IMG/VR virus record: IMGVR_UViG_3300044960_000525
Coordinates: 1 to 63,192 of that record
DNA from: a virus
Taxonomy: Duplodnaviria; Caudoviricetes
Length of the DNA stretch: 63,192 nucleotides
Reading direction: 5' to 3' (one strand)
The notes below the pieces were generated by a model that did not search any database, was not told the DNA's origin, and saw nothing but the letters and a program-made list of their open reading frames with translations. How positions within the stretch are numbered: position 1 is the first letter of the stretch; every line of letters begins with the position of its first letter. The position numbers and the translations under genes were made by a program. Below are positions 44,731 to 63,192 of the stretch, piece by piece.

Positions 44731-44744
44731 CCGAGCACGGATGC

Positions 44745-44785: not shown

Positions 44786-44802
44786 CCTCACAAGGAGTGG
44801 CG

Positions 44803-44943: not shown

Positions 44944-44945
44944 CC

Positions 44946-45899: not shown

Positions 45900-45916
45900 G
45901 AGAGGAGTGGTTCCCA

Positions 45917-47548: not shown

Positions 47549-47754
47549 CCAAACTGACAGATGTTCGAGTGCATGTTGTGCGAAGTGCGACCATCCCTAC
47601 CGGTCGCTATAAATCAACGCGAGTAGAATTTGGACTCGCGGGTATGTTGAGTGGAGTTGTGAGCGATACACAGGTTCGTCTCGCCTATAAACGTCTCAAA
47701 CGATTGGTTGAAGACGAACTTGTTCGAGAAAAGCGCCGGTTGCAGGAGGAATGA
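47545..47754 (+). CDS. Hypothetical protein
   Basis: ATGA overlap. Confidence 0.6.
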   Translation: MTKLTDVRVHVVRSATIPTGRYKSTRVEFGLAGMLSGVVSDTQVRLAYKRLKRLVEDELVREKRRLQEE

Positions 47755-48200
47755 CGATGACGCGACAGACGCAAACGATACACACGTTCAAGTGTCCTCA
47801 TGGGAGTGTGCGGTTTGTCCGCAGTTCACAAGGTTATTTCCGGTTCTTGCACCGCGATGGTCACCCATGTCCGGTGCTATCAACGTTTACTGCGACCTTG
47901 AAAGATGCGTATGCGCCTCAAGAGGAGAGAAAGCCTGCGCGACTCTCTGATGTCGTGTCCATTTTTGCGATGATGGGAGACCCGATGTCCAAACTGTTCG
48001 ATGACGCCAAGAAAATCCTGCATCGTCAGTTATCGTTGCGGGAATTCTTTGAAGGGGTGGAATCGCCTCCGACAGAGGAGAAACAGGTCGAGGATGCGAA
48101 CAAGGAAATTGAAGAACTCGCCCGATCCTTGACCGAGAACGTCGCACGATTGACGCATGTGAAGAAACTTGCACACGACCTTGAAAAGGGGCGACCATGA
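47751..48200 (+). CDS. Hypothetical protein
   Basis: AGGAGG RBS. Confidence 0.65.
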   Translation: MTMTRQTQTIHTFKCPHGSVRFVRSSQGYFRFLHRDGHPCPVLSTFTATLKDAYAPQEERKPARLSDVVSIFAMMGDPMSKLFDDAKKILHRQLSLREFFEGVESPPTEEKQVEDANKEIEELARSLTENVARLTHVKKLAHDLEKGRP

Positions 48201-48248
48201 CGAACGAACACCCCTCTGTCACCCAATAATTCACAAAAAGGAGTATGT

Positions 48249-48602
48249 ATGAGTGCGTCTCAGACCCGCTTGCACGTACTTGCCATCTACAAGGGAACGG
48301 GTGGACGTTGTTCAGAAGAGGAGAATGTTCTGACTCCACGATTTGAAGTTCCATCAGGACAGATTGCTAAAGCCATCAAAGCACAGGTGTATTGGCTGGA
48401 AAAACCCCTTGTAGTAAAAATTCGTGTTGAGCGGTCACACCATATTATTGGGCGAGCGACAGGGGTGCTTCGCGCGGTAAACGTCTACGCGGACCAGCGG
48501 TCGCTTTGGGTTTTTCAATGGTCAGCGCGAGAGGAACGGGCGGTGCGGTGGATTGCTCACACATTTAGGACCAACGTGGTCCTCTCGCTGAGGAAACTGT
48601 GA
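48249..48602 (+). CDS. Hypothetical protein
   Basis: AAGGAG RBS. Confidence 0.6.
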   Translation: MSASQTRLHVLAIYKGTGGRCSEEENVLTPRFEVPSGQIAKAIKAQVYWLEKPLVVKIRVERSHHIIGRATGVLRAVNVYADQRSLWVFQWSAREERAVRWIAHTFRTNVVLSLRKL

Positions 48603-48850
48603 TGGCGACACACGATCCTGATGATATTTTCTACGTTGTGGTGTCCTCCCATGATACGGAGGAATATGAACTCCCATTTGGCGTGTGCCAACGATGCGGT
48701 GATATTGTGGAAGTGCAAAATGGCGTTCCCGTTACAGCCACAGACGCACGAATCAGCGCGGTGTGCAATGCAGATGATCGAGATGTCCTCTACAAAGTCG
48801 CCGCTCGTATTCGGTCCATGATTCACAAGGCACTAGCGATGATGAATTGA
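48599..48850 (+). CDS. Hypothetical protein
   Basis: Overlap with upstream gene; CQRC motif. Confidence 0.55.
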   Translation: MMATHDPDDIFYVVVSSHDTEEYELPFGVCQRCGDIVEVQNGVPVTATDARISAVCNADDRDVLYKVAARIRSMIHKALAMMN

Positions 48851-48854
48851 GGGG

Positions 48855-49433
48855 GTGAGGGTTGTGCGCCGAGTACGACCGGGGCCTCGATTTACTCCGC
48901 TCTTGCAGACGACCCCTCGTCAGCGACAACGCGAAGTCATTATTGGAGCAACAATTGTTCTTCTGGCCGTGCTCGTGGGATTTGCGCTAGGGCTGTTTTG
49001 GGGGGGGTACGCATCGAGGAGGGGGGAAGAGACCCCATCGCGTCTAGAATCGCTCCTGGAGGCTCCCAGGGACCTTCCTGAGCCTTCTAGGAGCACGGTC
49101 CTGACCGTCACGCGCACCGCATACAATCCAGTTCCTGAACAGACGTGGGGCGATCCCTGTATCGGGGCTTCAGGGAAAAACCTGTGCGAGATGGCCAAGC
49201 AGGGGAAACGCATTATTGCAACAACCCCCGATCTATCGCTCCCCTTTGGCACACGTGTCCGTATCGAAGGACATATCTACGAAGTGTGGGATCGGATGCC
49301 GACTTCTCGGTATGATTTTCAACGAAAACGACGTGTTCCGCAAACGCAGGCTGTAGACATTTTTACGTTCGACTATGCTGAAGCGATGCGATTGGGACGA
49401 CGCCAGGTGCAGATGGAGGTCCTCGATGACTAA
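48855..49433 (+). CDS. Membrane-anchored 3D-domain (lytic transglycosylase-like) protein
   Basis: TM helix then TAYN, IIATTP..LPFGTRVRIEG.IYEVWDR and VDIF motifs. Confidence 0.8.
   Translation: MRVVRRVRPGPRFTPLLQTTPRQRQREVIIGATIVLLAVLVGFALGLFWGGYASRRGEETPSRLESLLEAPRDLPEPSRSTVLTVTRTAYNPVPEQTWGDPCIGASGKNLCEMAKQGKRIIATTPDLSLPFGTRVRIEGHIYEVWDRMPTSRYDFQRKRRVPQTQAVDIFTFDYAEAMRLGRRQVQMEVLDD
49047..49093 (+). repeat. Dispersed phased motif, copy F (inside CDS)
   Basis: GAATCGCTCCTGGAGGCTCCCAGGGACCTTCCTGAGCCTTCTAGGAG. Confidence 0.85.
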
Positions 49434-49671
49434 CGGATTGTTGACTCTTGGTGAGCGTGTTGATACTCCGTATGGGTCCGGAATTATTGTGGGGTTTGGG
49501 AGGGCTCGTGCGGGATGGGAGGGGGTATGGCAAGTCGACATCGTAGACCCAACGCTCGGTCCCGTTCGTGTTGTGGGCACGAAAGGTCCCTTTGTGGTTG
49601 TGCTCATCGAGGATCGAACCATCTCGGTGCTCTATGACGAAATCAATCCCCTGAGGAGGGATATTGAGTGA
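49426..49671 (+). CDS. Hypothetical protein
   Basis: GGAGG RBS. Confidence 0.55.
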   Translation: MTNGLLTLGERVDTPYGSGIIVGFGRARAGWEGVWQVDIVDPTLGPVRVVGTKGPFVVVLIEDRTISVLYDEINPLRRDIE

Positions 49672-50009
49672 GTCGCCTTGTGCGTATAGGAATTCTCGCG
49701 TGCGCGGTGTTTGTGGCTGTGGAACTTGGTCCACCAATTTGGAAGGGAAATATCCGAGATGGCTTGGTGGCGACTGGGGAGACGCCGTTGCACGATAAAT
49801 CCCACCCCCCAGATACGTCTCCCCCTTCAGATACGTCTCACCCCGAACGATCAACCGACGATGCGCCGTGGGGGTGGATGGTGATTCGGAAGACCGATCC
49901 GTTTCGACGCATGATTTATGGTCCGTTTTTGACCCCCGAGCCCGAATGTCGGGGGTATGAGCGACGATTTCCTGCGCTCTATGTGTGTGTGCCGCTCAAA
50001 GTGCTGTAA
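49668..50009 (+). CDS. Hypothetical secreted or membrane protein
   Basis: N-terminal hydrophobic segment. Confidence 0.55.
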   Translation: MSRLVRIGILACAVFVAVELGPPIWKGNIRDGLVATGETPLHDKSHPPDTSPPSDTSHPERSTDDAPWGWMVIRKTDPFRRMIYGPFLTPEPECRGYERRFPALYVCVPLKVL

Positions 50010-50022
50010 ACCACAAGGAGGG

Positions 50023-50232
50023 ATGAATCACATGATTGCATCTCCGCTTCTGTCACTGGGTGCGAGAATGGAACGGAAAGCGATTCGACGGTATCTGCAA
50101 CGGAAACTCAAGAAATACAATGACGAATCAGCCTATTCAGTATGTAAAGAGATGCTGCAGTGGGTGCTCACTCGTCAGAAGCGATACGATTCACGTCCAG
50201 GCGGATTGGGAAGATCACGTCGAAAGACATGA
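50023..50232 (+). CDS. Hypothetical basic protein
   Basis: AAGGAGG RBS. Confidence 0.55.
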   Translation: MNHMIASPLLSLGARMERKAIRRYLQRKLKKYNDESAYSVCKEMLQWVLTRQKRYDSRPGGLGRSRRKT

Positions 50233-50245
50233 GGAGATACACACC

Positions 50246-50617
50246 ATGACTGTGTGGACGATGCTTCGTGCGTGGGGTGCGCCGATAGTGTCTGTGGAGG
50301 AAGATGGGGATCGCTTTCTCGGGCTCACCCCCGATGCGATCCCCAGCCCAACGCTCAAGGCCGCGACCGAGCGGGTTGCGGCTGTCGCCAACTGGTATCC
50401 CGAAATCACCTCCCTGGTCGTTGGGCTGGTGCTCGACGGGGATGCGGATCGGTTGCGGGCGTGGAATCGCGCGATGTTGGAGCGCGTGGGGTATGAGACG
50501 GCTGAGGTCTCCGATCCCACAGCGCGGATGACATCTGCCAGGGCATATGCTGATAGGGTGATGGACGCGCTGGGGGGTCTCGCGTCTCTGATAGAGACCG
50601 AGGAGGGAGAACCATAA
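50246..50617 (+). CDS. Hypothetical protein, paralogue family I
   Basis: GDADRLRAWNR...ARAYADRV shared with 58764 and 59192. Confidence 0.7.
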   Translation: MTVWTMLRAWGAPIVSVEEDGDRFLGLTPDAIPSPTLKAATERVAAVANWYPEITSLVVGLVLDGDADRLRAWNRAMLERVGYETAEVSDPTARMTSARAYADRVMDALGGLASLIETEEGEP

Positions 50618-50642
50618 TGAGTCAGATGACACGGGGTGACAC

Positions 50643-51026
50643 ATGCTCTCCGCGGTGAGGCACGTCTCCCCATGGTTTGACCAAGAGCCGCCTGAGCGCC
50701 CCATTGTCGGCTTCGTGGCGTCGCTCGACATCTCCCCGTCATGGGAGTTGGACGCGATGGCCGTGTTCCGTGTGACAGGTCGCGGATACCTGGTCGTGCA
50801 TGTCCGCGGGTGTTCGTGCTGGCCGCTCTATGGGGACACGGTGCAGATGTATGCTCCGACAGTTGCCGAGGCTGAACGGACGATCCGTCGGCTGTGGGAT
50901 GGGGACGCGGACGCCAAGGCAGCGGCTGCGGAGTTAGTCCTGCGCTGTCAGCGTGCTCGGTGGCGTATCACGGGGTCGTCTGCTGAAAGCGGGGAGCGTC
51001 ATAATGAGCCAGATGACAAGGGGTGA
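50643..51026 (+). CDS. Hypothetical protein flanked by 29-bp direct repeats
   Basis: GCSCW motif; repeats at 50613 and 51000. Confidence 0.6.
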   Translation: MLSAVRHVSPWFDQEPPERPIVGFVASLDISPSWELDAMAVFRVTGRGYLVVHVRGCSCWPLYGDTVQMYAPTVAEAERTIRRLWDGDADAKAAAAELVLRCQRARWRITGSSAESGERHNEPDDKG

Positions 51027-51032
51027 CATGGC

Positions 51033-51239
51033 GTGGTGTCTCTCCGTCCGTTGGCTTGGTGTAACGTTTCGAAATGTGGTCAGCCAGCGGTTTGGGAAGT
51101 CTACAGTCCCCGTGGGATATTTCTGGGGACATATTGTGAGCGACATGCGCAGGATGAAGTACAGCGCGGGGTGTTGATCCGACAGCGGCGATTGCGTCAG
51201 AGGGTGTTGCGGGAGACGCACGGACGAGAGAGGAGATGA
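51033..51239 (+). CDS. Small zinc-binding protein, paralogue family II
   Basis: CNxxxC...LG.YC..HA shared with 53579. Confidence 0.6.
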   Translation: MVSLRPLAWCNVSKCGQPAVWEVYSPRGIFLGTYCERHAQDEVQRGVLIRQRRLRQRVLRETHGRERR

Positions 51240-51296
51240 CATCATGGGTTACGTACGGAGGGCGCGGGAGGGACGATGGCGCGATGGGCTCTGGTG

Positions 51297-51845
51297 ATGA
51301 GCGAGTCGGAGACATGGACGTATCTTGCGGAGGTGTGGGAGCGCACCGCTCGGGCACGGCGACGCAGAGTGGCCGGGCCGGAGCGTCGCATGTGGTATGG
51401 GCTCTGCGCGGGGGTAGATTATATTCGCGCGCAGCGGTGGATTTCCCGACGGATTTATCAGAATATGTTCGACACGTTGAACCGCGCGGTGGAGCGGTCG
51501 GGGCGCACGGACGGTTTTGCCTGGCCGTTGACGGTGGAGGGCGCGAGACAGCGAGCGCGGTTCTGTCGTCGGATGGCGAGAGCCACGGCGCAGGACACGA
51601 CGACGAGGACGCAGCGCACGTCTCGTCGGACGACGGGGACGGGGGTGCGTGATGGTCCGTGGTGGGCACGTGGGCACGGAGGGCTGGACGGATATTGTGA
51701 TGTCGGAGAAGACGGACGATTGGGTCAAGGCTTTCATGGCCAACCCGGACCCTTACGGGGCGGAGGTGATTGGCGGCGCCATTCTGGTGATGGCGCAACT
51801 GGCGGTTGGCAAAGACCCCGCTGCGGCGGCACAGGACGTGTTTGA
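51297..51845 (+). CDS. Hypothetical protein, paralogue family III
   Basis: MSESETWTYLAEVW...AWPLT..GA..RARFCR shared with 57690; C-terminal extension doubtful. Confidence 0.65.
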   Translation: MSESETWTYLAEVWERTARARRRRVAGPERRMWYGLCAGVDYIRAQRWISRRIYQNMFDTLNRAVERSGRTDGFAWPLTVEGARQRARFCRRMARATAQDTTTRTQRTSRRTTGTGVRDGPWWARGHGGLDGYCDVGEDGRLGQGFHGQPGPLRGGGDWRRHSGDGATGGWQRPRCGGTGRV

Positions 51846-52071
51846 TGACCTGAGTGTGTTCCAGATGTGCTTAGTGGCTGAAATGGTCAGCGCGCTCAGC
51901 CCGCGAGGAGAGGAGTTCCGGAGGTGGTGGAACTTCCACGTGCCCAAGACAGCGGTTGAGGAGTCCCGGCTGCTGCGGGACACCTACGTGAAGGCGTTGG
52001 TGCTCGCGCTGGTCATCAGCATGATTGCTGGGCTGTACGTGCTGATGTGCGGCTACGCAGGCGGCCCCTGA
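51699..52071 (+). CDS. Hypothetical membrane protein
   Basis: C-terminal TM helix; start uncertain. Confidence 0.55.
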
Positions 52072-52320
52072 CCGCCCGAATCGTAGAGGCTCCTGCTACA
52101 ACGGCGGGATGGGTTGGTTGGGGGCCGCCCGCTCGTGTAAGGGACGTTGAGGGAGGAACGGTTATGAAGCGCAAAACCGAGCAACAGTCTTTGTGGGGAG
52201 TGCGTCTCCTGTTCGAGACAGTGACGGTTGACATACCAGGAGAACGGCAGATCAAGGTGCCCATGACGAGTCCACAGGGGGGCTTGGCCGGGGTGATTCT
52301 GGAGCGAAAGGAGACGGGAG

Positions 52321-53160
52321 ATGACCGACAGTGTGCAGACCGCTGACGTGCGTCAGGACGGCGATGTGCTCCATCGCTTGCGACGCGATCTCCGTCGAGC
52401 GATGGTGACGCTCTCACCGCAAGAGGTGCGGTACCTGGTTGACGCCTACTACACGATGCAGAAACAGCGCATCCGTGCGGGGAACCAGGCCACCGCGATG
52501 CGCAAGGTGGGAGAGCCCAATGAGGCGGTCACCTGGTACATGGAGGAGTCGGAGCGCCTGGAGGAGGAGGTGTACGGGGTTCTCCGGGCGTACGCTCAAG
52601 GGCACCCTGTGGGGCAATGGTCGCTCTCCATCGTCGGTATTGGGCCTGTGATCTCTGCAGGACTGCTGGCGCACATTGACATCGAGCGCGCACCGACGGT
52701 CGGGCACATCTGGCGGTTTGCTGGGCTCGATCCCACGGTGACATGGGAGCGGGGCGCGAAGCGGCCCTTCAACCGACGGCTCAAAGTGATTTGCTGGCAC
52801 ATCGGCGAGTCATTCAAGCGCACCAGCGGTCATGCGCGATCGTTCTACGGTCCGCTCTACCGGGCACGCAAGGCCCTGGAGGAGCAGCGGAACGCGGAGG
52901 GGCTCTACGCCGAGCAGGCTGCGCGCACGCTGCGGGAGCGACCCACCCACGCGCAGCGGGATATCTACGCGGAGGGGCGTCTGCCGCAGGGTCGTCTCGA
53001 CTTGCGGGCGACGCGATGGGTGACGAAACTCTTTCTAGCGCACTGGCACCACGTCGCCTACGTGGTGCGCTATGGGACCGCGCCGCCGAAGCCCTACGTC
53101 ATCAGCGTGATGGGCCACGGGGACTACATCGCGCCGCCCAATTGGCCGATGCCAGAGTAG
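52321..53160 (+). CDS. tasA: TIGR-associated Nop-domain protein without nuclease domain (TasA-like)
   Basis: Coiled-coil (YLVDAYYTMQKQRIR) plus IS110/Nop-type SIVGIGPVISAGLL...IWRFAGLDP and KLFLAHW; no RuvC or HNH; directly followed by a 36-nt dual-repeat array. Confidence 0.85.
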   Translation: MTDSVQTADVRQDGDVLHRLRRDLRRAMVTLSPQEVRYLVDAYYTMQKQRIRAGNQATAMRKVGEPNEAVTWYMEESERLEEEVYGVLRAYAQGHPVGQWSLSIVGIGPVISAGLLAHIDIERAPTVGHIWRFAGLDPTVTWERGAKRPFNRRLKVICWHIGESFKRTSGHARSFYGPLYRARKALEEQRNAEGLYAEQAARTLRERPTHAQRDIYAEGRLPQGRLDLRATRWVTKLFLAHWHHVAYVVRYGTAPPKPYVISVMGHGDYIAPPNWPMPE

Positions 53161-53171
53161 GGGTGCAGAGT

Positions 53172-53548
53172 AGCCGCGGAGAGTACCGCGAGTTCGGAGC
53201 GAGCCGTGAGGAGCGAGAGTACCGTGGCTGCAGAGCGAGCCGAAGGCGAGGAGAGTACCGCCTGGTGCGAGCGAGCCGAGTCGGGAGAGAGTACCGTTGG
53301 CGGAGAGCGAGCCGTGGTCACCGAGAGTACCGTGGACAGGGAGCGAGCCGCGCGACAGGAGAGTACCGTGAAACCGGAGCGAGCCGAAAGTGCGGAGAGT
53401 ACCGTGGGCCCTGAGCGAGCCGGGGCTGTCGAGAGTGCCGTTGCTGGTGAGCGAGCCGCGAGGGACGAGAGTACCGTGGGAACCGAGCGAGCCGTCCTCT
53501 GGGAGAGTACCGCGTCGCGCGAGCGATCCGTAAGTAGCGAGAGTGAGG
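53172..53548 (+). ncRNA. TIGR (tandem interspaced guide RNA) array: 9 full 36-nt units plus degenerate end units
   Basis: Unit AGCCG-N9-AGAGTACCG-N9-AGCG; loop repeat recurs exactly every 36 nt from 53180 to 53540; all spacers differ. Confidence 0.9.
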
Positions 53549-53578
53549 GTTCGATTCGGAGTGGGGAGGGAAACAGCG

Positions 53579-53779
53579 ATGGCGTATCTGCGTACATTGC
53601 CTGTGTGCAATGAGTCGGGGTGTACCCGATGGGCAACGCACTCTCTGTATGATGAGGGGGCCATTCGTTTGGGAGACTACTGCAGCCTGCACGCTCTGGC
53701 TGCGCTCCACCGATGGGTGAAGAGACATGATCGTGTTCGCAGTCACAGCACAGAGAAAGAACGGGGAAAGAAGTCATAA
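53579..53779 (+). CDS. Small zinc-binding protein, paralogue family II
   Basis: GGAGG RBS; CNESGC...LGDYCSLHA. Confidence 0.65.
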   Translation: MAYLRTLPVCNESGCTRWATHSLYDEGAIRLGDYCSLHALAALHRWVKRHDRVRSHSTEKERGKKS

Positions 53780-53790
53780 CCAAGTCCCTG

Positions 53791-54660
53791 ATGGAGGACG
53801 AAGTGACCGGGAGAATCTACCTGGCGGACAACCTGGAGGTTCTTCGAACACTACCGGCTGAGTCCGTGGACCTTGTCTATATTGATCCCCCATTCAACAC
53901 GGGCAAGGTCCAGCAGCGCACCCATCTGAAGACTGTGCGCTCGTCGAAAGGTGGCCGTGTCGGTTTCCAGGGTCGTCGTTACAAGAGTATCGTCGTGGGA
54001 ACGAGACGCTTTGCCGACCTCTTCGATGACTACTTGGCCTTCCTGGAGCCGCGCCTCACCGAGGCTCATCGAGTCCTGGCCCCTCACGGGTCCTTCTACT
54101 TCCACATTGATTACCGCGAGGTGCATTACTGCAAGGTCCTCCTCGACCACATCTTCGGGCGGGAGTGCTTTCTGAACGAGATCATCTGGGCCTATGACTA
54201 CGGTGGTCGGCCCAAGGACCGGTGGCCGCCGAAGCACGACAACATTCTCCTCTACGTGAAGAACCCGTCGAAGTATATCTTCAACGTGGACGCGATTGAG
54301 CGAATCCCGTATATGACGCCTGGTCTTGTGGGACCAGAAAAGGCGGCGCGGGGGAAACTCCCGACCGACACGTGGTGGCACACCATCGTGCCAACGAACA
54401 GTGTGGAGAAGACGGGGTATCCGACACAAAAACCGCTCGGGATTCTTCGACGTATTGTCATGGCTTCTTCACGACCAGGAGCATTAGTTCTGGACTTTTT
54501 TGCGGGGAGCGGAACCACTGGTGTTGCAGCGTTGGAATGTGGGCGGCACTTTCTTTTGGTGGACAATAATCCAGAGGCCCTTGAGGTCATGGCTAAGCGG
54601 TTCGACGGTGTGGACGGTATTGAGTGGGTCGGATTCAACCCCGTGGTCAAGCGGAGATAG
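53791..54660 (+). CDS. Amino DNA methyltransferase (N6A/N4C, beta class), orphan
   Basis: IDPPF motif IV precedes YPTQKP and LDFFAGSGTT motif I. Confidence 0.93.
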   Translation: MEDEVTGRIYLADNLEVLRTLPAESVDLVYIDPPFNTGKVQQRTHLKTVRSSKGGRVGFQGRRYKSIVVGTRRFADLFDDYLAFLEPRLTEAHRVLAPHGSFYFHIDYREVHYCKVLLDHIFGRECFLNEIIWAYDYGGRPKDRWPPKHDNILLYVKNPSKYIFNVDAIERIPYMTPGLVGPEKAARGKLPTDTWWHTIVPTNSVEKTGYPTQKPLGILRRIVMASSRPGALVLDFFAGSGTTGVAALECGRHFLLVDNNPEALEVMAKRFDGVDGIEWVGFNPVVKRR

Positions 54661-54997
54661 GTGATAAGGAGGGAGAATGACCTATGCGCCTATCCGAGTT
54701 CTGGACGATGTTGAATAATGACCGACGTGGTATTGGGCTCAAAATTATTCTCCTTGCTCTCCTTATGCTCATAGCAGCGTTGCTGGAACCGAGATAGCAA
54801 GGAATCCGACCGTGGCGATTTCACAATTCTTCCGCTTTTCCTGGGGTCGAGCGGGGTGAAGTCGTCACGGTCACTTCATTGTTCGTGGGATTATGGGTCT
54901 GCACACGACATTGAAACTGGGGAGGGGGTTGAGAACGCGGCGCAGAAAACGGAATCCGCATGACAGCAGGGATGAACCGTGGAGGAGATGAACAGGG

Positions 54998-55204
54998 ATG
55001 AAGCCACCGAACTACCCGGTGATTGTTGTGCATCTGGAGGATGGAGGCAGAACGGCGTGTACGGGTGATGAATTACCGGACCCCCCGTCCGTGGTGTTTC
55101 AGAACGTACCACGGTATCTCTGCCCGGGATGCCGACTTATCGTGTTCCTTCGTGACCGTCAGAGAGCACCGATGGACGATTTTGGAGAGCGCCGGACACC
55201 TTGA
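54998..55204 (+). CDS. Hypothetical protein
   Basis: RBS; CPGC motif. Confidence 0.5.
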   Translation: MKPPNYPVIVVHLEDGGRTACTGDELPDPPSVVFQNVPRYLCPGCRLIVFLRDRQRAPMDDFGERRTP

Positions 55205-55324
55205 AGTGATTTGCCGCCGCCGGGCGAGTGCTGTTGTAGAATATGGCGGCGTACAAAATCCATTTGCTCGGAGATGACGAGTGGTTCACGAAACGGGTAG
55301 GGAGCGGGGTGTGATGAGACGACG

Positions 55325-55798
55325 ATGAAATTCATTCGGCTGACACAGGGGAAAATTACCGTGATTGATACGCGGGATTGGCTCCGTGTGAGTCGATATA
55401 AACGCTGGCACGCGGTGAATTGGGGAGGACGGTTCTACGCCGCCACTACGCTCAAAAATGGTCGGAAACTCTATTTGCATCGGTTGCTCCTCAACGCTCC
55501 TGCGGATGCGCAAATTGACCATATCAACGGGAATACGCTGGATAACCGCCGAAGTAATTTGCGGATCAGTACCGCGTCCACCAATCAACAAAATCGTCAC
55601 CGCGTGCAGGGACATATTCCCTATAAAGGGGTCTACCGTCACACCGATGGGCGATTTATCGCGCGGATCAAGGTGAGGAACACACAATACTGGTTGGGAT
55701 CGTTCAAAACCGCACTCGAAGCCGCGCGTGCGTATGATCGAAAAGCCCGCTATTATTTCGGTGCTTTTGCGAGGGTGAATTTCCCACAATGGAAATGA
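55325..55798 (+). CDS. HNH-AP2 homing endonuclease
   Basis: LHR...IDHINGNTLDNRRSNLR plus YKGV...LGSF....EAARAYD AP2 domain. Confidence 0.93.
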   Translation: MKFIRLTQGKITVIDTRDWLRVSRYKRWHAVNWGGRFYAATTLKNGRKLYLHRLLLNAPADAQIDHINGNTLDNRRSNLRISTASTNQQNRHRVQGHIPYKGVYRHTDGRFIARIKVRNTQYWLGSFKTALEAARAYDRKARYYFGAFARVNFPQWK

Positions 55799-55874
55799 GG
55801 CCGCCTGTGTCATCGGTGCGCTTGCCGACACATCGGCAAAGAAATCGAATACGTATGCTCTACGCAGCGACCGA

Positions 55875-56366
55875 ATGAAGGTGCGGTTGGTCGCTCGAAC
55901 CCCGCCAGGCCACTGGCTGCGTCCTGCACTCGGCCTGTCTCTGCATCAGTATCTCGCCATCTTCGAGCCCACGCCGCTTCCCGACACGCTAGAGGCTATC
56001 GACGCGCTCTTGCGGTCGTCTCGCCAAATTCTGTGTGTTGGCCGAGACGTGGCCCGCGCTTTTGGCGTGCCTCGTCGCACGCCGTTTCTCACGAATATTC
56101 CTATCTATCAAGACGAGCAACACACAGGGTGGATTGCCGTAATCCCGGTGTCGGCGTGTTGGTGGTCGTCGGTGGAGCAGCGTTATGCTGCTCGCGCGTT
56201 CCTCTCCCAAATCACGATGGACCGGGCTGTGTATCATCGCGGGCTGGCGTACTATGAAACACCATTGCGTGACACCGATAGCGAGCCTGACCCTGACGTG
56301 CTTCGCACGATTGCAGAACCTCCAATGGGAGTGCGGAGGATTCCTCGGTTCCTGCGAACGCTTTAG
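55875..56366 (+). CDS. Hypothetical protein
   Basis: ORF on coding strand. Confidence 0.55.
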   Translation: MKVRLVARTPPGHWLRPALGLSLHQYLAIFEPTPLPDTLEAIDALLRSSRQILCVGRDVARAFGVPRRTPFLTNIPIYQDEQHTGWIAVIPVSACWWSSVEQRYAARAFLSQITMDRAVYHRGLAYYETPLRDTDSEPDPDVLRTIAEPPMGVRRIPRFLRTL

Positions 56367-56371
56367 ACCCC

Positions 56372-56401
56372 TTGACGGAACCTTACTAAATCCCCTATAC
56401 T
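56372..56401 (+). promoter_or_regulatory. Sigma70-type early promoter
   Basis: TTGACG-N18-TATACT. Confidence 0.75.
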
Positions 56402-56409
56402 TCACTTAA

Positions 56410-56830
56410 ACTGCATAAGTAGTGGTGAACGTAGTCCCGTGACCACGGGACACCGCCGAGTGACGTTGGAACGGGTGATGCTGTTCCAAACGATGCGAGG
56501 TGGGGGAAAGAAAGGCGGGGTGCATGAACCCGCGCGGATCACCCGGGGTGACGCCGAGCCGAGAGGACAGACGCGAATCACCCCCCCCTGGGGAGGGCCG
56601 AGAGGACAGACAACCTGGGGATGCAGCACATAACCCGATGACCCGCCGGACGGATGGAGTGATGACCTAAAGTCGGGGCTCATTACTTCCTGCGGTGCGT
56701 GCTTCGTGTTCGGCGGATCAGGGTCGCGAGCCGCAGGAGGTGATGGGCCCCGCGCCGTTCCAGAACGACCCCGGGGGGAACACGCCATGGAGAATGAGCG
56801 CCCGGGAGAGAAAGAACACAAAGGGCAGGA
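56410..56830 (+). ncRNA. Candidate structured pseudoknotted RNA 2 (shares core with RNA 1)
   Basis: 21-bp stem with 3 G-U pairs, pseudoknot, several hairpins and shared TGGGGATGCA(G)CACATAA motif; 3' end approximate. Confidence 0.6.
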
Positions 56831-56857
56831 TAGACCGGAGAGAGAGGAGGAACAGCG

Positions 56858-57259
56858 ATGGAGGAGACGATGGAATATTATTACCACGGAACGTCTACTC
56901 GGTTGGTCGGCTCTATCCTTCGGGAGGGGCTGCAACCGCGGGGCGAGACTCTGGCTCCCGGGGAGGAGCCAGGGGTGTTTTTTGCCACGCGGCCCGAGAG
57001 AGCAGTAATGTTCTCCTATTATGCTTGCGGGCGCTATGGAGGAAGGCCCGTGGTGCTCCGGGTACGGGCCGATGCGGTGAGGGCGCAGTCCCTCCAGGCG
57101 TATGGCTTGGAGGATTGTGGACAGGTCTATTCGTCGAACCCCGTCCCTCCCGACGCCATTGCGGTCGGGTGGGTGGAGGGGGTCTGCGACGAGTGCGCTC
57201 GCGGTGCGTGGTGGGCGTGCTGCGGGTGCTGGCCCCATTGGACGCGGAGGGAGCCCTAA
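56858..57259 (+). CDS. ADP-ribosyltransferase-fold protein (Tpt1/KptA C-domain-like)
   Basis: YYHGTS....SILREGLQP...GVFFAT....A motif; C-terminal VPPDAI. Confidence 0.65.
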   Translation: MEETMEYYYHGTSTRLVGSILREGLQPRGETLAPGEEPGVFFATRPERAVMFSYYACGRYGGRPVVLRVRADAVRAQSLQAYGLEDCGQVYSSNPVPPDAIAVGWVEGVCDECARGAWWACCGCWPHWTRREP

Positions 57260-57693
57260 TGGAGAAGAGACTTATCAACCTGACGGAGCACGACATCACC
57301 GTGCTTCCGGAAGGTAGAGTTGGCGTCACGGCCCACATTCTCGGTGCGCGCATCCGTCGTACCCGTCGGGTGACTATCCCGCCGTCCGGTGTGGTCGCTC
57401 GCGTTCACGCCGTCCACGAGGAGGTCGCGCGGGTGACTATCGACGGGGGCGATATCTCCATTGTTTCGACGCGCTTTGGGGAAATCGTCGGGCTCCCTGC
57501 TCCTGAGCCCGGGGTGCTCTACATTGCGAGCACCCTGGTCGCTCAAGCGGCGGCTCGCGCTGGGCGGCGCGACGTTGTCGCTCCCGACACCGGGCCCGAC
57601 AGCGTCATTCGTGGTCCGGACGGTCGGCCTGTGGCGGTTCAGCGGTTTCAGACCTTTTGGGCCGACGACGAGGAGGAGGCGAAGAACGTATGA
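57259..57693 (+). CDS. Hypothetical protein
   Basis: INLTEHDI, IPPSG.VARV, GLPAP..G..YI.S..VA and R.DV..P pattern that I recall from viral proteins. Confidence 0.75.
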   Translation: MEKRLINLTEHDITVLPEGRVGVTAHILGARIRRTRRVTIPPSGVVARVHAVHEEVARVTIDGGDISIVSTRFGEIVGLPAPEPGVLYIASTLVAQAAARAGRRDVVAPDTGPDSVIRGPDGRPVAVQRFQTFWADDEEEAKNV

Positions 57694-58046
57694 GCACTAA
57701 GGTCTGGCACCCCGAGCACCGCACAGCACGCCGTTCTGCCCCCACCCTCCAGATGAGCGAATCGGAGGCGTGGACGTATCTTGCGGAGGTGTGGACGAAC
57801 GCGTATCGGGCCCGGCGGTGCAGAGCAGCAGGGCCGGATGATCAGATATGGACCGGGCTCTGCGAGGGAGTGGACTATCTGCGCGCGAAGCGGCGGATTA
57901 CCCGACAGACCTATCAGGTCATGATCCGAACGTTGAAGGATATGGTCGTTCGGTCGGGACGCAATGACTGTCTTGCTTGGCCGCTGACGATCAAGGGCGC
58001 CCAACACCGGGCGCGGTTCTGTCGTCAGATGGCACGAATGAGGTGA
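57690..58046 (+). CDS. Hypothetical protein, paralogue family III
   Basis: Similar to 51297. Confidence 0.7.
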   Translation: MSTKVWHPEHRTARRSAPTLQMSESEAWTYLAEVWTNAYRARRCRAAGPDDQIWTGLCEGVDYLRAKRRITRQTYQVMIRTLKDMVVRSGRNDCLAWPLTIKGAQHRARFCRQMARMR

Positions 58047-58078
58047 AAAGCGATATTCGCCAGAAGGAGGAACAGCGA

Positions 58079-58288
58079 ATGAAAAAGTGTAGGTTCGCCT
58101 TGCACGGAAAGACCGTGTTGTTGATGTTGAAGGAAGATCGGAGTGTGTTGGCCGTTCCCTCGCTGCGCATCAAGTTGGTGGGAGAGAAGCCCGCGGTGAT
58201 AGCGCGGGCTAAAGAGTATCTGGAGCGCCCTTGGCTGTTGCAGGGTGCGCAAGACAGGATCATTGTCTTGAAGGGAGAGAGGACATGA
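58079..58288 (+). CDS. Hypothetical protein
   Basis: AAGGAGG RBS. Confidence 0.6.
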   Translation: MKKCRFALHGKTVLLMLKEDRSVLAVPSLRIKLVGEKPAVIARAKEYLERPWLLQGAQDRIIVLKGERT

Positions 58289-58743
58289 ACATGAAACGCG
58301 AGGGGCGCTACACGGTGAAAACGGTGCGGGTTCGGCTGCGAGTAAGTGAACCGCTGGAATTGGTAAGAAGGCCCGCGGACGCAGCGCGGATTGCAGAGGC
58401 GGTGTACCGTAACCTGGACGCTGACCAGGAACACTTCACGATCCTGGCGCTGGACGCGCAACACCAGATGATCGGGTTCAAGGTGATATCCAGTGGCGGG
58501 ATGGACTCCGCGCACGTTGACTTTCGTCTGGTGTTCCGCGCTGCATTGCTGCTGGGCGCCGCTTCGATCATTGTGGTGCATAATCACCCGAGCGGCGATT
58601 CCGATCCGAGTTCTGACGATATGCAGATAACCGTGAGGTTGATAGAGGCCGGTGCGCTTCTGGGATTACCGGTGTTGGACCACATAGTGCTCGGCGCAGG
58701 TTGCTATCACAGTTTCGGCGAGCATGGGCTCATGTCCAAATAG
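58285..58743 (+). CDS. radC: RadC-like JAB/MPN domain protein
   Basis: QEHF.IL.LD, HNHPSG...PS..D and VLDHIV motifs. Confidence 0.92.
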   Translation: MNMKREGRYTVKTVRVRLRVSEPLELVRRPADAARIAEAVYRNLDADQEHFTILALDAQHQMIGFKVISSGGMDSAHVDFRLVFRAALLLGAASIIVVHNHPSGDSDPSSDDMQITVRLIEAGALLGLPVLDHIVLGAGCYHSFGEHGLMSK

Positions 58744-58763
58744 ACCGGAGAGGAGGAGCAGGG

Positions 58764-59144
58764 ATGAGGGACAAGACTGCTCGATTGGCGTTGGATATGC
58801 GAGGGTTGATTGTCTGGGGGGCGATGCCGTCGATGGAAACCGTTGCGGCGTCCATTCCGGTGGACCGGGTGCCCGATGTCAAACTCCGGGCCCAGATCAA
58901 GGAGATGATGCTGAACTATCGCTTTCCACCGTATGTCGCGTCCTACATCGCGGGGCGCATCCTCGCAGGGGACGCGGAGGGACTGCGGTGCTGGAACCGC
59001 GAGGCGTTGGAGGCCATTGGGCTCCAGATGGCTGAACAGCGCCACGCAGGTCCGGTTGATAAGAGGGTTTATGCCAGGTGTTATGCGGAGGAACTGAAAA
59101 AGGACTTGGAGAGTCTCGCGCAGTCCGTGGAGAGGGAGGCGTGA
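58764..59144 (+). CDS. Hypothetical protein, paralogue family I
   Basis: GDAEGLRCWNR...ARCYAE. Confidence 0.7.
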   Translation: MRDKTARLALDMRGLIVWGAMPSMETVAASIPVDRVPDVKLRAQIKEMMLNYRFPPYVASYIAGRILAGDAEGLRCWNREALEAIGLQMAEQRHAGPVDKRVYARCYAEELKKDLESLAQSVEREA

Positions 59145-59191
59145 TTATGTACCCGCTCCGGACCATCAGAGGATGGAGGGAGGACAGAGAC

Positions 59192-59587
59192 ATGTTGAGC
59201 GTCAAGGATGAGTGGACGGCACTGCAGATTGCTCGATCCTGGGGTGCGCCGGTGCCCGAGACACCCCAGGCGCGCGATGCGTACACCGGGTGGTACACCG
59301 GGTGGTCGTTATTCGCCGTGCCCGCCTGTTTCCGTCGGGCCATTGAGGCGGTCGAAGCCGAGGCCAATTGGCCCGTGGAAGTAACCGAGGTTCTCATCGG
59401 GTTAGTGGTCCGCAGGGACGCGAACCTTCTGAGGGCTTGGCGTCGCCAAGCCTTGGTGGAAGTTGGCGAGGCCACGTCCGAGGAGCGGACGCGCGCAGCG
59501 CGGGCGGCGTCGGCAGAGCGCTATGCTGACCGGGTCATCGCGGCCTTGGGGCGGGTGGCGGACATGGTGCAGGAGAGGGAGACGTGA
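59192..59587 (+). CDS. Hypothetical protein, paralogue family I
   Basis: ANWPVEV...DANLLRAW...ERYADRV. Confidence 0.7.
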   Translation: MLSVKDEWTALQIARSWGAPVPETPQARDAYTGWYTGWSLFAVPACFRRAIEAVEAEANWPVEVTEVLIGLVVRRDANLLRAWRRQALVEVGEATSEERTRAARAASAERYADRVIAALGRVADMVQERET

Positions 59588-59645
59588 TATATACCCGCTC
59601 CGGAACGATTCGGGACCGTATCCTCGGAGAGGAGGAGGAGGAACG

Positions 59646-59819
59646 ATGCGCACGCCACCGACCGAGCAACCGCCGCGTCTGTGTAGTTGTGGAAATCCTG
59701 CACAGGCGTATATCTGGGGATCATGGCTCTGCGAGGAATGTCTTGAGATCATTATGACTCCAACGGATGATGAGTTCGGCGAATGGGAACCGGAGAGGAG
59801 GAATCAAAGATGCTCTTGA
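59646..59819 (+). CDS. Small zinc-finger-like protein
   Basis: GGAGG RBS; CSCG...LCEEC. Confidence 0.55.
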   Translation: MRTPPTEQPPRLCSCGNPAQAYIWGSWLCEECLEIIMTPTDDEFGEWEPERRNQRCS

Positions 59820-60136
59820 AGGACGCTCGGGAGCACGCGGGCTCGTCAAAGTTCTCGGGATATGACCAGAAGGGGCGGGTGTTGGCCGCCGCGTTGTGGT
59901 TGTTGTCCCTGGAATCCGGTCATGACGAGGAGGCCGGGGATGCGGTCGATGGGCCGGGCTGGTTCGCCTTGTTTCATCGGTCGCACCGACCGACATCGTT
60001 TGTGCTGTCGGTCTCGCCGAGTGGGTTCGTGGACATTTCCACGCACCCGTCCCGTAAGGTGCTCGCGGTCTGGGAGCGGATTGTGAGGGACCTTGAGGGC
60101 GAAGAGGAGAAGGGGGGATGCGACCGTTTCTCGTAG
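59810..60136 (+). CDS. Hypothetical protein, paralogue family IV
   Basis: MLLKDAREHAGSS...HRPTSFVL shared with 62830. Confidence 0.7.
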   Translation: MLLKDAREHAGSSKFSGYDQKGRVLAAALWLLSLESGHDEEAGDAVDGPGWFALFHRSHRPTSFVLSVSPSGFVDISTHPSRKVLAVWERIVRDLEGEEEKGGCDRFS

Positions 60137-60420
60137 GAGTTGTCGGCCACGAAACAGTTCCCGTCGTCGTGATGTTCGCAACCTCACGACGTGCTGCGTA
60201 CAGGGCGTTCATCAAAGACGCCCCATTTTTTCGAGGGGATGCGATCTTCGTGATTCCGCTTCCGCGCGGGTCACGGTATATCGTGAAACGACGACAACGG
60301 GCGTGGACACCGTTGTCGAAACCGTTGAAGAAGCCTCGGACGAGAAGGCCGGAACCGGAAACGATTCCGGAGATCATCAAGGACGCCCTACAACGAGCAG
60401 CGAGGAGGAGACGACGATGA
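60118..60420 (+). CDS. Hypothetical protein
   Basis: RBS; overlaps neighbours at both ends. Confidence 0.55.
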   Translation: MRPFLVGVVGHETVPVVVMFATSRRAAYRAFIKDAPFFRGDAIFVIPLPRGSRYIVKRRQRAWTPLSKPLKKPRTRRPEPETIPEIIKDALQRAARRRRR

Positions 60421-61430
60421 CGTTGAGCAACGCGGAAGTGATTCGGCGGTTTGCTGCCCAGCAGGTGAACCGTGCTACAAGCAAGGTGAACCCTAAGGTG
60501 TATTGGCGTTCACATGGTCTCACCACGTCCGGCGATGGGTTGTATTCGTATGGACAACTCATCGCGCGGTATTTGGCCCCCAATCTCTTCCTGAAGTGTG
60601 GTGATCGGTTCACGGCCAGGACAGGGGGTGCGGAAGTTCCGTACTCGGTCACCACGAATCAGCATATCGGGATGATCGTATCTCCCAGAGGGCTTCGGGG
60701 GCCCGTTGTATCGTTCAACGCCCTGGAGAGCGCAGGGGTTGACGTGCGGGAGTTGACCGCCGACAACATCGTGCATTGGACAGCGGATCACACGATTCCC
60801 CTGTATCGGGAGTCATTGGACGCGGAATGGCGGGACGCGAGGACGCACGAGGCGTTCAAGGCTCCAGACCAGGGGATGCTCATTCCCGAGGTTGATGGGC
60901 TCCATGCGGAATGGCACTTCATCGACGAGACCCTCCTGAACGTGAAGGGGCGCACGTTGCTGTGTCGCCTCGATGAGAACGTGTATTGCGTCATCGAGGT
61001 TCCTTCTGGCCCGCGCACGGTGCATGAGGCGATTGAGAGCCTCAAGCCCGCTCCCGTGAAGGAGAGCGAGGCTGCGGGGGTCCCCGTGCTGCGACAGGGC
61101 GAGTGGTTCTTCGTTCCCTTTGCGAAAGACGACGCGGACCTTGCAACGAAGTTGGGCTTGGCGAGCAAGACCGCGGTGCGGAAGCAGAGTCGGATGCGTC
61201 CTCTTCCTCGAAGAGACGCTTCTTCAAGGGCGCATTTTGCTGTAACTCTGATTCACGACAATCGCATCTATGCTCGGGGGACGGTGCATCATCGGCGGGA
61301 AGTGATGAGGCCCTATCGGGAGAAGTGGTGTGCGTCGGGGGAGCATAGGCCGTTGCGCTTGGACGGATGGTATGCGGTCTACCCTAACTTGGAGATCGCC
61401 TCCTGGACGCAATCGGGGAATTTCGACTAG
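60417..61430 (+). CDS. Hypothetical protein
   Basis: GAGGAGG RBS; LYSYG, SVTTNQH and RQGEWFFVP motifs. Confidence 0.75.
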   Translation: MTLSNAEVIRRFAAQQVNRATSKVNPKVYWRSHGLTTSGDGLYSYGQLIARYLAPNLFLKCGDRFTARTGGAEVPYSVTTNQHIGMIVSPRGLRGPVVSFNALESAGVDVRELTADNIVHWTADHTIPLYRESLDAEWRDARTHEAFKAPDQGMLIPEVDGLHAEWHFIDETLLNVKGRTLLCRLDENVYCVIEVPSGPRTVHEAIESLKPAPVKESEAAGVPVLRQGEWFFVPFAKDDADLATKLGLASKTAVRKQSRMRPLPRRDASSRAHFAVTLIHDNRIYARGTVHHRREVMRPYREKWCASGEHRPLRLDGWYAVYPNLEIASWTQSGNFD

Positions 61431-61729
61431 TGCGCCACCGTCGAAAAACCGTGAGCGTGTATTTGTTGTGCCGTTCCTCCGCAACTCCAGCGGAGATTGT
61501 GCAGACCATCACTGACGCCCTAAATACCACCGCATGGGGCGCGATCACGGACATTATTGGCGCACAGGACTATGTGGCTGTTGCGCCAACCATGGACCAG
61601 CATGCGCTTGCGCGCATCTATTCGCTCGCCAAAGGGGGGATAATTCGGAAAATCGCCAAACGCGCACTGACCGCAGGGAACTACTGGAAGTGGAAAAAGG
61701 CTACTCATCTCTGGAAACACGGAGGATAA
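61430..61729 (+). CDS. Hypothetical protein
   Basis: Adjacent ORF. Confidence 0.5.
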   Translation: MRHRRKTVSVYLLCRSSATPAEIVQTITDALNTTAWGAITDIIGAQDYVAVAPTMDQHALARIYSLAKGGIIRKIAKRALTAGNYWKWKKATHLWKHGG

Positions 61730-61731
61730 CC

Positions 61732-61980
61732 ATGGCCAAGAAGACGAAAGAGGATGTTGTGGTTGCGCCGCGTGGGTTCGTGATCCTCTCCCCGGAGGAA
61801 AAGTTGAAGGTGGCCCGCGCTGCGGAAAAGGACTTCAGCAAGATTCCTGCGGCGCACCGCGACGCGGTGGTCGCGGTCATCAACAAATACTTCCTCCAGA
61901 TCGGCTACAAGCCCCTTGTGCGTCTGCTCCGCGGGAAAACTCCAGAGCAGGCCATCAGCAAGTGGGGAAAGGGGGAGTAA
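61732..61980 (+). CDS. Hypothetical basic protein
   Basis: GGAGG RBS. Confidence 0.7.
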   Translation: MAKKTKEDVVVAPRGFVILSPEEKLKVARAAEKDFSKIPAAHRDAVVAVINKYFLQIGYKPLVRLLRGKTPEQAISKWGKGE

Positions 61981-61985
61981 CGTGA

Positions 61986-62207
61986 ATGTCGCCCGTCAAA
62001 CCCGTTTTCGCGGGTGTCGCCTATGTCAAGTTCTACCGCACCATGAATAGGGTGATCGTGGCGCTTCCCCACCATATCATCGTCGCGCCGAATAGGTGGA
62101 CGTGGATTCTCAAGCGTCAGCGCCACGCGAATATCGACCGTCTCCTCCAGAAGCGGGGGTTGCTACCTCCAAAGCGCGTTCCTAGGCTGAAAAGGCCGAA
62201 CACTTGA
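61986..62207 (+). CDS. Hypothetical basic protein
   Basis: GGGGAG RBS. Confidence 0.55.
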   Translation: MSPVKPVFAGVAYVKFYRTMNRVIVALPHHIIVAPNRWTWILKRQRHANIDRLLQKRGLLPPKRVPRLKRPNT

Positions 62208-62384
62208 TGCGTGACCCCTTCCGGGTGCAGCGGGTGTTCATCAAGACGCTGCACTCCTTCCCACGAGCGGCCATCCACCTCTTCGTGGTCTATCTGCTCT
62301 GGGGATGGCGCAGTATTCTCTTCTGGCTCGTGGTCGTCTACTATGTCGTCTATATTTTAGGCGACGACTGACCACGCACGGGAT

Positions 62385-62411
62385 GGGGGGGCGGTCGCAC
62401 GCCCCCCTTTT
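62385..62411 (+). terminator. Terminator-like hairpin
   Basis: GGGGGGCG-loop-CGCCCCCC-TTTT. Confidence 0.6.
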
Positions 62412-62458
62412 CCCTCAGCCCTCGGTTGCATGTGTTCTGGAACAAGGAGGAAGACACC

Positions 62459-62716
62459 ATGGCGCGATCTCGGGCCCGCAAGGCGGATTCGTCGCGGTAT
62501 CGGGTCCGCAAGGTGAGTTTTTACGATCTCGCGCGGACTGTCGCGTATGTCGTCGAAGACACGGAGGCGATCATTAACTCTGTCGTTGACGCGTTCTCCG
62601 AATCGACGTATGGCGCCCAGGCGCGGACTGTCGCGATGAAGCGTCGGGATGCACTGAACACGGAGCACGCCCTTCGCCGAATTTTGCAATCCTCCCAGGA
62701 CGTTCGTCAGGGTTGA
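62459..62716 (+). CDS. Hypothetical protein
   Basis: AAGGAGG RBS. Confidence 0.65.
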   Translation: MARSRARKADSSRYRVRKVSFYDLARTVAYVVEDTEAIINSVVDAFSESTYGAQARTVAMKRRDALNTEHALRRILQSSQDVRQG

Positions 62717-62829
62717 GCACGGGACGGTGGGGTGGCTTGTGCCAGACCCGAGGAGGAGGGGGAATGGGGCTGTCTACAACGCGAAGGCGGAATCTGTGGG
62801 AGAACGAAACGAAGGGAGGGGAACGACGG

Positions 62830-63129
62830 ATGCTCCTCAAGGAGGCCAGGGAGTACGCAGGGTCGTCGCAATTTGACAGGTATACCCCGCGGGGTCGCAT
62901 GCTTGTGGCGTCCCTGTATCTTCTCGCGTTGAAGGGTGGCCACGACGTGGAAACCTGGGGTACGGCTGATGGGACGGTTCGGTTGACGTTGTTTTATCGT
63001 CCCCACCGGCCTACGTCCTTCGTCCTGTTGGTATCGCCGTCGGAAGGCATGATTGTCTATGCGTACCCGACGCGGCGGGTTCTGGAAGTTTGGGAGAACG
63101 TCGTGCGCACGCCTGTTCGGACACGATAG
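62830..63129 (+). CDS. Hypothetical protein, paralogue family IV
   Basis: Similar to 59810. Confidence 0.7.
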   Translation: MLLKEAREYAGSSQFDRYTPRGRMLVASLYLLALKGGHDVETWGTADGTVRLTLFYRPHRPTSFVLLVSPSEGMIVYAYPTRRVLEVWENVVRTPVRTR

Positions 63130-63182
63130 GGCATCACCTTGCGGCTCTGGCGGGCTATGAGCACGGGCTGACCCCCTCCCCC
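63057..63182. repeat. Terminal direct repeat, right copy
   Basis: Identical to 1-126. Confidence 0.95.
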
Positions 63183-63192
63183 GCCCCCGCGG

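Follow-up and report, generated by a model that had tools for sequence, protein, structure and literature searches.

A structured untranslated region of a hot-spring phage: a probable regulatory leader with a terminator-like site downstream

The described RNA elements closest to the locus studied here are put of phage HK022, nut of phage lambda and conAn of Gram-positive conjugative plasmids. In HK022, two ~70-nucleotide (nt) put RNAs that share sequence are placed downstream of the early promoters, one near its promoter and the other ~270 nt downstream (PMC9378689), and conAn2 is a 383-base-pair (bp) intergenic 'large RNA element' that heads an operon and antiterminates downstream terminators (PMC8191782). 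We analyzed the IMG/VR virus record IMGVR_UViG_3300044960_000525 (Duplodnaviria; Caudoviricetes), whose 63,192 bp are referred to as the window, and in which an initial annotation had reported two large structured RNAs, RNA 1 and RNA 2, as a possible new family in two copies. Our analysis indicates that RNA 2 is most likely a regulatory leader running into a terminator, and not a proven new RNA family. More tentatively, and by analogy with the systems above, RNA 1 and RNA 2 may both be promoter-proximal leader/terminator units in which a shared hairpin would act as the recognition site for terminator read-through.

Both leaders show the same arrangement, in which a promoter is followed by structured RNA carrying a short common motif and then by a rare terminator-like signal, and they were therefore read as leader/terminator units. 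The two promoters (Table 1) are the best two of the 10 sigma-70-like sites found in 43200-63192, both lying on the coding strand, and that of RNA 2 is the only such site within 55800-57300, where 0.2 would be expected. They have the upstream CCCCTCTTGACA / CCCCT(C)TTGAC context in common with a third promoter, at 35371. Judged from its position, transcription of RNA 2 probably starts at ~56408-56410. Behind this promoter, TTGACG-N18-TATACT, the initial annotation had seen ~450 nt without a credible gene, with which both the reading frames and the Pfam searches agree. The leader lies within the 491 nt (56367-56857) that separate the stop codon of open reading frame (ORF) 55875-56366 from the ATG of ORF 56858-57259; its + strand stop-to-stop frames are at most 85 amino acids (aa) long, and two longer ones begin in its 3′ part and continue into the downstream genes. 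When seven frame pieces were compared with Pfam at E ≤ 10, the six consisting mostly of leader gave one noise match and nothing else, and the seventh (56834-57256), which is the downstream ADP-ribosyltransferase-like frame, gave three weak matches.

It is very unlikely that these 491 nt hide a gene for a small protein or what is left of the 5′ end of a formerly longer gene. The candidates would be the N-terminal lobe of the RNA 2′-phosphotransferase Tpt1/KptA, of which the downstream ORF resembles the C-terminal lobe only, and a 48-aa frame at 56524-56670, which is kept in frame by the 39-nt spacing, divisible by three, of a repeated 15-mer. The codon-usage scores of the small leader frames (−0.12 to 0.14) are intermediate between those of true genes (0.21 ± 0.09) and of off-frames (−0.35 ± 0.20) and not clearly off-frame; however, the translations are of low complexity with much Arg, Gly and Pro, no GGAGG ribosome-binding site of the sort that precedes real genes here stands before the candidate starts, and the Pfam comparison of the six leader frame pieces showed no relic of a Tpt1 N-lobe upstream of ORF 56858-57259.

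The regulatory-leader reading draws further on the predicted fold. On the + strand, none of 100 shuffles was as stable as the whole leader (z = −3.65), and on the − strand 24 of 100 were (z = −0.66); this strand-specific folding would fit a structure formed at the RNA level in the sense orientation. Taken with the promoter and the frames, the fold predictions support a + strand-specific structured, apparently non-coding transcript region behind a good promoter. The single elements pointed out by the initial annotation were recovered as well: the 21-bp stem with 3 G-U pairs has pair probabilities of 0.99-1.00, the two 5′ hairpins are present in both the minimum free energy (MFE) and the centroid structures, and the duplication of GCCGAGAGGACAGAC at 56558 and 56597 is exact and occurs exactly twice. 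Even with 2 mismatches allowed, two matches to GCCGAGAGGACAGAC were obtained in 1 of 100 shuffles, and CCUGGGGA stands directly 3′ of each copy. The 3′ arm of the long stem holds AGGAGGUGAU, a Shine-Dalgarno-like run behind which we could read no usable start codon, and Tandem Repeats Finder reported nothing in 56350-56900. In contigs from four DNA runs compared with 43500-58000, one of low depth spans 56600-56750 with 0 differences, and another spans 43747-44085 with 2 differences.

The most direct competitor of a regulatory leader is a region that does nothing of its own, namely a GC-rich untranslated spacer in a mosaic accessory region (50-62 kb), with hairpins that are incidental or stabilise the mRNA and a shared 18-nt motif that arose by chance or is a relic of a duplicated promoter region. 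We consider this rather unlikely, and the evidence is divided. For a spacer speak the results given below on the flanks of the motif, the covariance model and the homologue searches, and the neighbours are of a mobile or accessory kind (transposase, methyltransferase, HNH endonuclease, RadC). When 1049 windows of 300 nt were scanned with a correction for GC, those of RNA 2 ranked 20th to 508th, most of them inconspicuous and only the long-stem window standing out; the most structured window of the genome is 56941-57240, within the next ORF. On the other hand, a spacer would not readily explain a whole-leader fold that exceeds its shuffles on one strand only, nor the 3 G-U pairs of the long stem, which become A-C mismatches on the opposite strand; 491 useless nt would be unusual in a tightly packed phage genome, and each copy of the motif has a top-ranked promoter on one side and a rare terminator-like site on the other.

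The motif, TGGGGATGCA(G)CACATAA, is common to both leaders at 17 of 18 positions. Aligning TGGGGATGCA-CACATAA (43873) with TGGGGATGCAGCACATAA (56616) gave a local score of 29, which was reached in 0 of 300 shuffles (best 26), and a search of both strands of the window with up to 3 mismatches returned the two leader copies only. Genome-wide, 141 same-strand pairs, true repeats included, match at least as well, a figure that would suit a spacer; by arithmetic from this rate, at most ~0.01 such matches would be expected between these two particular leaders. Outside the motif, the likeness of the two regions does not exceed that of shuffled sequence: with the motif taken out, the observed semi-global score was reached by 273 (downstream) and 403 (upstream) of 500 shuffles, and the local score by 464 (downstream) and 243 (upstream) of 500. 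The pairs TGAACC/TGACCC, AGTGTGTGCCCAA/AGTGATGACCTAA and GGTTCAG/GGATCAG, which the initial annotation had listed as further blocks shared in the same order, therefore carry no weight, whereas the one motif stands. A covariance model was also built from 56611-56755, the core of RNA 2; without filters and at E ≤ 10 it listed 20 matches in the window, none of which was RNA 1. This counts as a weak negative, since a single-sequence model tolerates length changes poorly. With flanks at chance level, an RNA 2 model that misses RNA 1 and no homologues in the collections searched, a two-copy family in which the core is kept and the stem replaced is not supported. The initial annotation had itself named a lack of homologues, or shared motifs no better than shuffled sequence, as grounds for giving up the family, and apart from the one motif this is mostly what was found.

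Homologues were sought in several collections. Rfam 15 (4227 models) gave 0 matches in the whole window at the gathering threshold, so that neither RNA was assigned to a family; at E ≤ 10, 56200-57000 gave four matches, all to microRNA models and far under their thresholds, and 43700-44200 gave no match. No Rfam match stood behind a CsrA-type GGA sponge, a CRISPR-repeat mimic, a Y-RNA-like or a 6S-like RNA, ideas that were considered by reading. A blastn search of INPHARED (50,697 phage records) returned nothing, motif scans of IMG/VR returned 2 and 19 loci, all of unrelated context, those of the JGI metagenomes 0 and then 14 unrelated loci, and that of the GTDB genomes 0 loci; on reading, most loci found by the motif scans sit in protein-coding DNA. 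These scans require an exact pattern match, so that close copies of the motif are excluded and diverged family members could be missed. At the protein level, the Tpt1-like ORF, a 163-aa ORF and the VWA protein had no IMG/VR relatives, the portal protein matched three distant records at 32-43% identity, in which neither RNA was matched, and DNA polymerase III alpha matched 36 loci at 20-30%. Among these 39 distant-relative loci (646 kb), one generic hairpin match (E = 0.027) and two 3-mismatch sites were found, none of them convincing. As far as these protein matches tell, this is a phage without close relatives.

Among the structural proposals, the pseudoknot between the loop of the long stem and an upstream segment fared less clearly. 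The complementarity exists, the pairing of 56633-56650 with 56709-56724 being predicted at −25.3 kcal/mol, but 35-67 of 1000 shuffles did as well, and for the RNA 1 counterpart (−16.5 kcal/mol) 111-139 of 1000 did, so that support for a pseudoknot is marginal; the proposed H-type pairing would also compete with the motif hairpin. This complementarity, and the free-standing HNH_3 endonuclease gene (55325-55798) 600 nt upstream, are what might speak for a self-cleaving ribozyme or a self-splicing intron, which we regard as extremely unlikely. The pairing stands out from shuffles marginally at most, no Rfam ribozyme or intron family matched even at E ≤ 10, the region opens with a promoter, and the ORFs on its two sides do not form a single split gene; the upstream one ends in a stop and shows no similarity to Tpt1. 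A group I or group II intron was rejected on the unrelated flanking ORFs, the upstream stop just before the promoter and the lack of an Rfam intron match. Of the functions that the initial annotation had listed for a conserved fold (ribozyme, protein-binding decoy or leader switch), a leader switch is closest to the anatomy, and nothing points to a ribozyme.

The third component of the arrangement is the terminator-like signal. For RNA 2 this is the hairpin at 56949-56984, which sits 92 nt inside ORF 56858-57259 and came out best among the terminator-like sites in 40 kb of scanned sequence. Under stricter criteria the whole genome has 4 such sites on the + strand, compared with 0.28 expected from 40 shuffles, and the other three are located at gene ends (1718-1746, 6618-6640 and 17198-17222). 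For RNA 1 it is the long stem itself, one of two perfect + strand helices of at least 12 bp next to T5 (0.13 expected from 30 shuffles). Counted from the presumed transcription start to the terminator, the predicted lengths are ~575 nt for RNA 2 (56409 to ~56984) and ~228 nt for RNA 1 (43811 to ~44038).

With such boundaries, the two RNAs might also be discrete, stable and trans-acting, for example by capturing a protein as a decoy or sponge, or by acting with the Tpt1-like enzyme as its partner or substrate, and the downstream genes would then be expressed by read-through only. The statistically unusual promoter and terminator, the stable 5′ hairpins and long stem, the repeated 15-nt element and the GGA-rich and purine-rich tracts are consistent with this, yet the terminator of RNA 2 falls within an ORF that looks genuine and has a strong ribosome-binding site of its own, a search of both genome strands that tolerated up to 3 mismatches gave no antisense target of the motif, and no homologues turned up in the collections searched. 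We judge a discrete trans-acting RNA to be unlikely.

In the preferred reading, by which both RNAs are cis-acting leaders, host RNA polymerase would start at the 56372-56401 promoter and make ~450 nt of structured untranslated RNA, the 5′ leader of an accessory-gene operon, and would then reach the strong intrinsic terminator at 56949-56984, 92 nt into the ORF that resembles the Tpt1/KptA C-lobe. RNA 1 would work likewise, with a promoter, the motif and a 17-bp stem plus U5 ahead of its first gene, and both units would set the amount of transcription that enters the operon. The bulged hairpin GGGAUG-CA(G)CA-CAU-AA-YCC would be the cis-acting recognition site, and either RNA polymerase or a factor that binds there would read through the downstream terminator. 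Use of the promoters and terminators, a function of the motif and the antitermination role are what we infer from this anatomy.

The anatomy of put and nut elements is found here in so far as a near-identical element occurs in two leaders, each time between a promoter and a terminator. As with putL and putR of HK022, there are two copies per phage genome that share sequence, stand behind sigma-70 promoters and have terminators downstream, and the motif lies ~+62 (RNA 1) and ~+207 (RNA 2) from the start, put sites being likewise found at differing distances. Unlike the motif, which extends over 17/18 nt and forms a small weak hairpin, put elements are described as two long stem-loops that are alike over their full length; the likeness to put is one of anatomy. 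The boxB elements of lambda nutL and nutR, the sites of N protein, are also short near-identical hairpins in two leaders with unrelated surroundings before the first terminators, and the first gene behind RNA 1 offers a further parallel in its basic Arg/Lys-rich tail. In contrast to lambda nut, neither a boxA nor an N-like protein was identified here, and the host is a thermophile. The loop and the bulge of the motif differ from those of lambda boxB.

In its size and position RNA 2 resembles conAn2, a large intergenic RNA that heads a long operon, has 20-bp inverted repeats and stem-loops and differs much in sequence from one system to another; the terminators on which it acts lie within the operon (PMC8191782). 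The differences are that conAn2 needs ConAn1, encoded directly upstream, and that it belongs to Gram-positive conjugative plasmids and not to a phage. RNA 2 resembles GOLLD and ROOL in size class and phage context without an Rfam match to either. GOLLD and ROOL are large structured Rfam RNAs of the several-hundred-nt size class, associated with phages or metagenomes.

Several results weigh against the leader/terminator reading with a shared recognition hairpin. In the collections searched, neither RNA 1 nor RNA 2 has a homologue from which conservation or covariation could be read. If the search space is taken as all non-coding DNA of the genome, ~0.3-0.9 matches as good as the motif would be expected by arithmetic, and the score of the motif pair is the lowest that still clears the genome-wide threshold. 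Its hairpin is weak (ΔG = −5.2 kcal/mol in RNA 2 and −3.7 kcal/mol in RNA 1); its pair probability is ~0.35 within the full RNA 2 leader and ~0 in the full RNA 1 leader, the latter because GCACACA is predicted to pair with UGUGUGC. Ribosomes that translate an ORF may also hide a terminator within it. For an alternative anti-terminator or anti-Shine-Dalgarno pairing, six duplex tests gave 37-257 of 300 shuffles that were as good, and a classical attenuator with alternative hairpins is not supported, as no upstream segment pairs better than chance. No N-like or ConAn1-like factor was identified, although no search was aimed at a ConAn1-type protein. Finally, the third promoter of this kind, at 35371, heads an ordinary 75-nt leader that lacks the shared motif.

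Within RNA 1, the leader is predicted to fold such that GCAUAUCGCACUCC (43833-43846) pairs with 44111-44125, where the next gene has its ribosome-binding site and GUG start; in a shuffle test the pairing of this leader with the start region was no better than chance.

What is new here is that each leader is paired with a rare terminator-like signal, which gives a simple testable model. If the leader and the shared hairpin do control terminator read-through, this would be an RNA-based antitermination or attenuation device that is unrelated in sequence to put, nut and conAn. It would extend what is known of such devices to an uncultivated hot-spring phage without close relatives, and would account for a terminator within the first ORF. 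At present this is a prediction from a single genome, in which promoter, motif and terminator make up a well-defined template for in vitro transcription. Bolder versions, which we think improbable, would see in the leaders a new class of large cis-acting leaders of thermophilic phages that confer terminator resistance on host RNA polymerase by means of a small conserved hairpin set within a big scaffold, or in RNA 2 a ~575-nt RNA that partners the lone Tpt1 C-lobe and may replace the RNA binding of its missing N-lobe.

Table 1. Features of the two leaders and of the surrounding genome
Feature	Position	Strand	Details
RNA 1 promoter, sigma-70-like	43775-43804	+	TTGACA-N18-TACAAT; 11/12 consensus matches
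RNA 1 motif copy	43873-43893	+	UGGGGAUGCACACAUAA; hairpin GGGAU/AUUCC
RNA 1 stem, terminator-like	43947-44038	+	17 bp (3 G-U, 52-nt interior), then A, then U5
RNA 2 promoter, sigma-70-like	56372-56401	+	TTGACG-N18-TATACT; 10/12 consensus matches
RNA 2 leader	56409-56857	+	~450 nt without credible ORF
5′-proximal hairpin	56434-56451	+	7 bp, GUCCCGUG-ACCA-CGGGAC; in MFE and centroid
Second hairpin	56466-56489	+	UUGGAAC...GUUCCAA; in MFE and centroid
Repeated element	56558-56572, 56597-56611	+	two exact GCCGAGAGGACAGAC copies, 39 nt apart
RNA 2 motif copy	56616-56636	+	UGGGGAUGCAGCACAUAA; small bulged hairpin GGG-AUG / CAU-AA-CCC possible
Long stem	56675-56695 / 56731-56751	+	21 bp, 3 G-U pairs, 35-nt loop; pair probabilities 0.99-1.00
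Purine-rich tract	56805-56857	+	predicted unpaired; ends in the GAGGAGG ribosome-binding site of the first ORF
First ORF behind RNA 2	56858-57259	+	133 aa; own ribosome-binding site GAGGAGG
Intrinsic-terminator-like site	56949-56984	+	10-bp stem (7 G-C), 6-nt loop, then GTGTTTTTT (T6)
Portal, capsid and tail genes	~7-34 kb	+	
M15 endolysin, primase, DNA polymerase III alpha, RecA-like and cold-shock-domain proteins	35-43 kb	+	
MoxR-type AAA and VWA proteins	45-47.5 kb	+	
Accessory region	50-62 kb	+	GC-richer; transposase, DNA methyltransferase, HNH endonuclease, RadC

The first gene behind RNA 2 appears from its similarities to encode, on its own, a homologue of just one part of Tpt1/KptA, the C-terminal lobe with the NAD/ADP-ribosyltransferase fold. 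Its residues 5-102 align with residues 93-177 of the 180 of PDB 9ld3 (E = 0.008), and further matches were obtained with phrog_5470 (E = 1.3e-3) and, weakly, with the Pfam families PARP (0.067) and PTS_2-RNA (0.3); in a word search of 5.8 billion proteins it retrieved only itself. Relative to the solved Tpt1 structures, the terminator-like hairpin within this gene encodes a 7-residue insertion. The first gene behind RNA 1 (44123-44730) encodes a very acidic Asp/Glu-repeat protein, whose basic C-terminal tail carries an AT-hook-like GRP motif; at the repeat of this gene the run assemblies are interrupted.

With its 135-bp direct terminal repeat, the record probably represents a whole genome of ~63 kb, though it is classed as linear and 38% complete; this is read from the recurrence of bases 1-135 at 63057-63191 with 99% identity. 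The runs that contain the RNA 2 region are labelled 'hot springs metagenome' and 'microbial mat metagenome', and none of those listed for 55800-57700 is an RNA run. All annotatable ORFs of the record lie on the + strand, and no tRNA or tmRNA was detected in the window.

Several repeats were noted elsewhere in the genome. A 46-nt repeat family has 7 copies, all on the + strand and mostly directly upstream of gene starts (among them 136-181, 4645-4690, 15379-15434, 30398-30443, 37549-37594 and 49048-49093); each consists of about four 10-nt units similar to GGCTYCYWGG, and the family may be a phage-specific promoter or protein-binding array. A YCYTGGGGM site that would tie the motif of the leaders to these repeats was dropped as weak, with 8 occurrences compared with 4 expected and 4 of 100 shuffles reaching 8. 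Three short direct-repeat arrays of iteron- or operator-like appearance lie in non-coding DNA (34409-34516, 578-824 and 1986-2091), the first of them directly upstream of a promoter at 34611.

Three successive ORFs in 21785-25155 have a third-codon-position GC of 0.84-0.85, compared with ~0.55 elsewhere, which suggests recently acquired genes of the tail-fibre region. In the accessory region, 51276-51845 and 57657-58046 are paralogues, one in each half, with 64% identity over 97 residues. The transposase gene (52321-53160, phrog_4285) has a contig depth of ~100-190 in two runs, compared with ≤~3 in most bins elsewhere along the phage, and its DNA copies in those runs are 90-95% identical, so that an abundant community member seems to carry the same insertion sequence. 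The best matches of the transposase, 53% to a Halomonas genome, 48% to a metagenome-assembled genome of Acidobacteria and 39%, are uninformative on the host.

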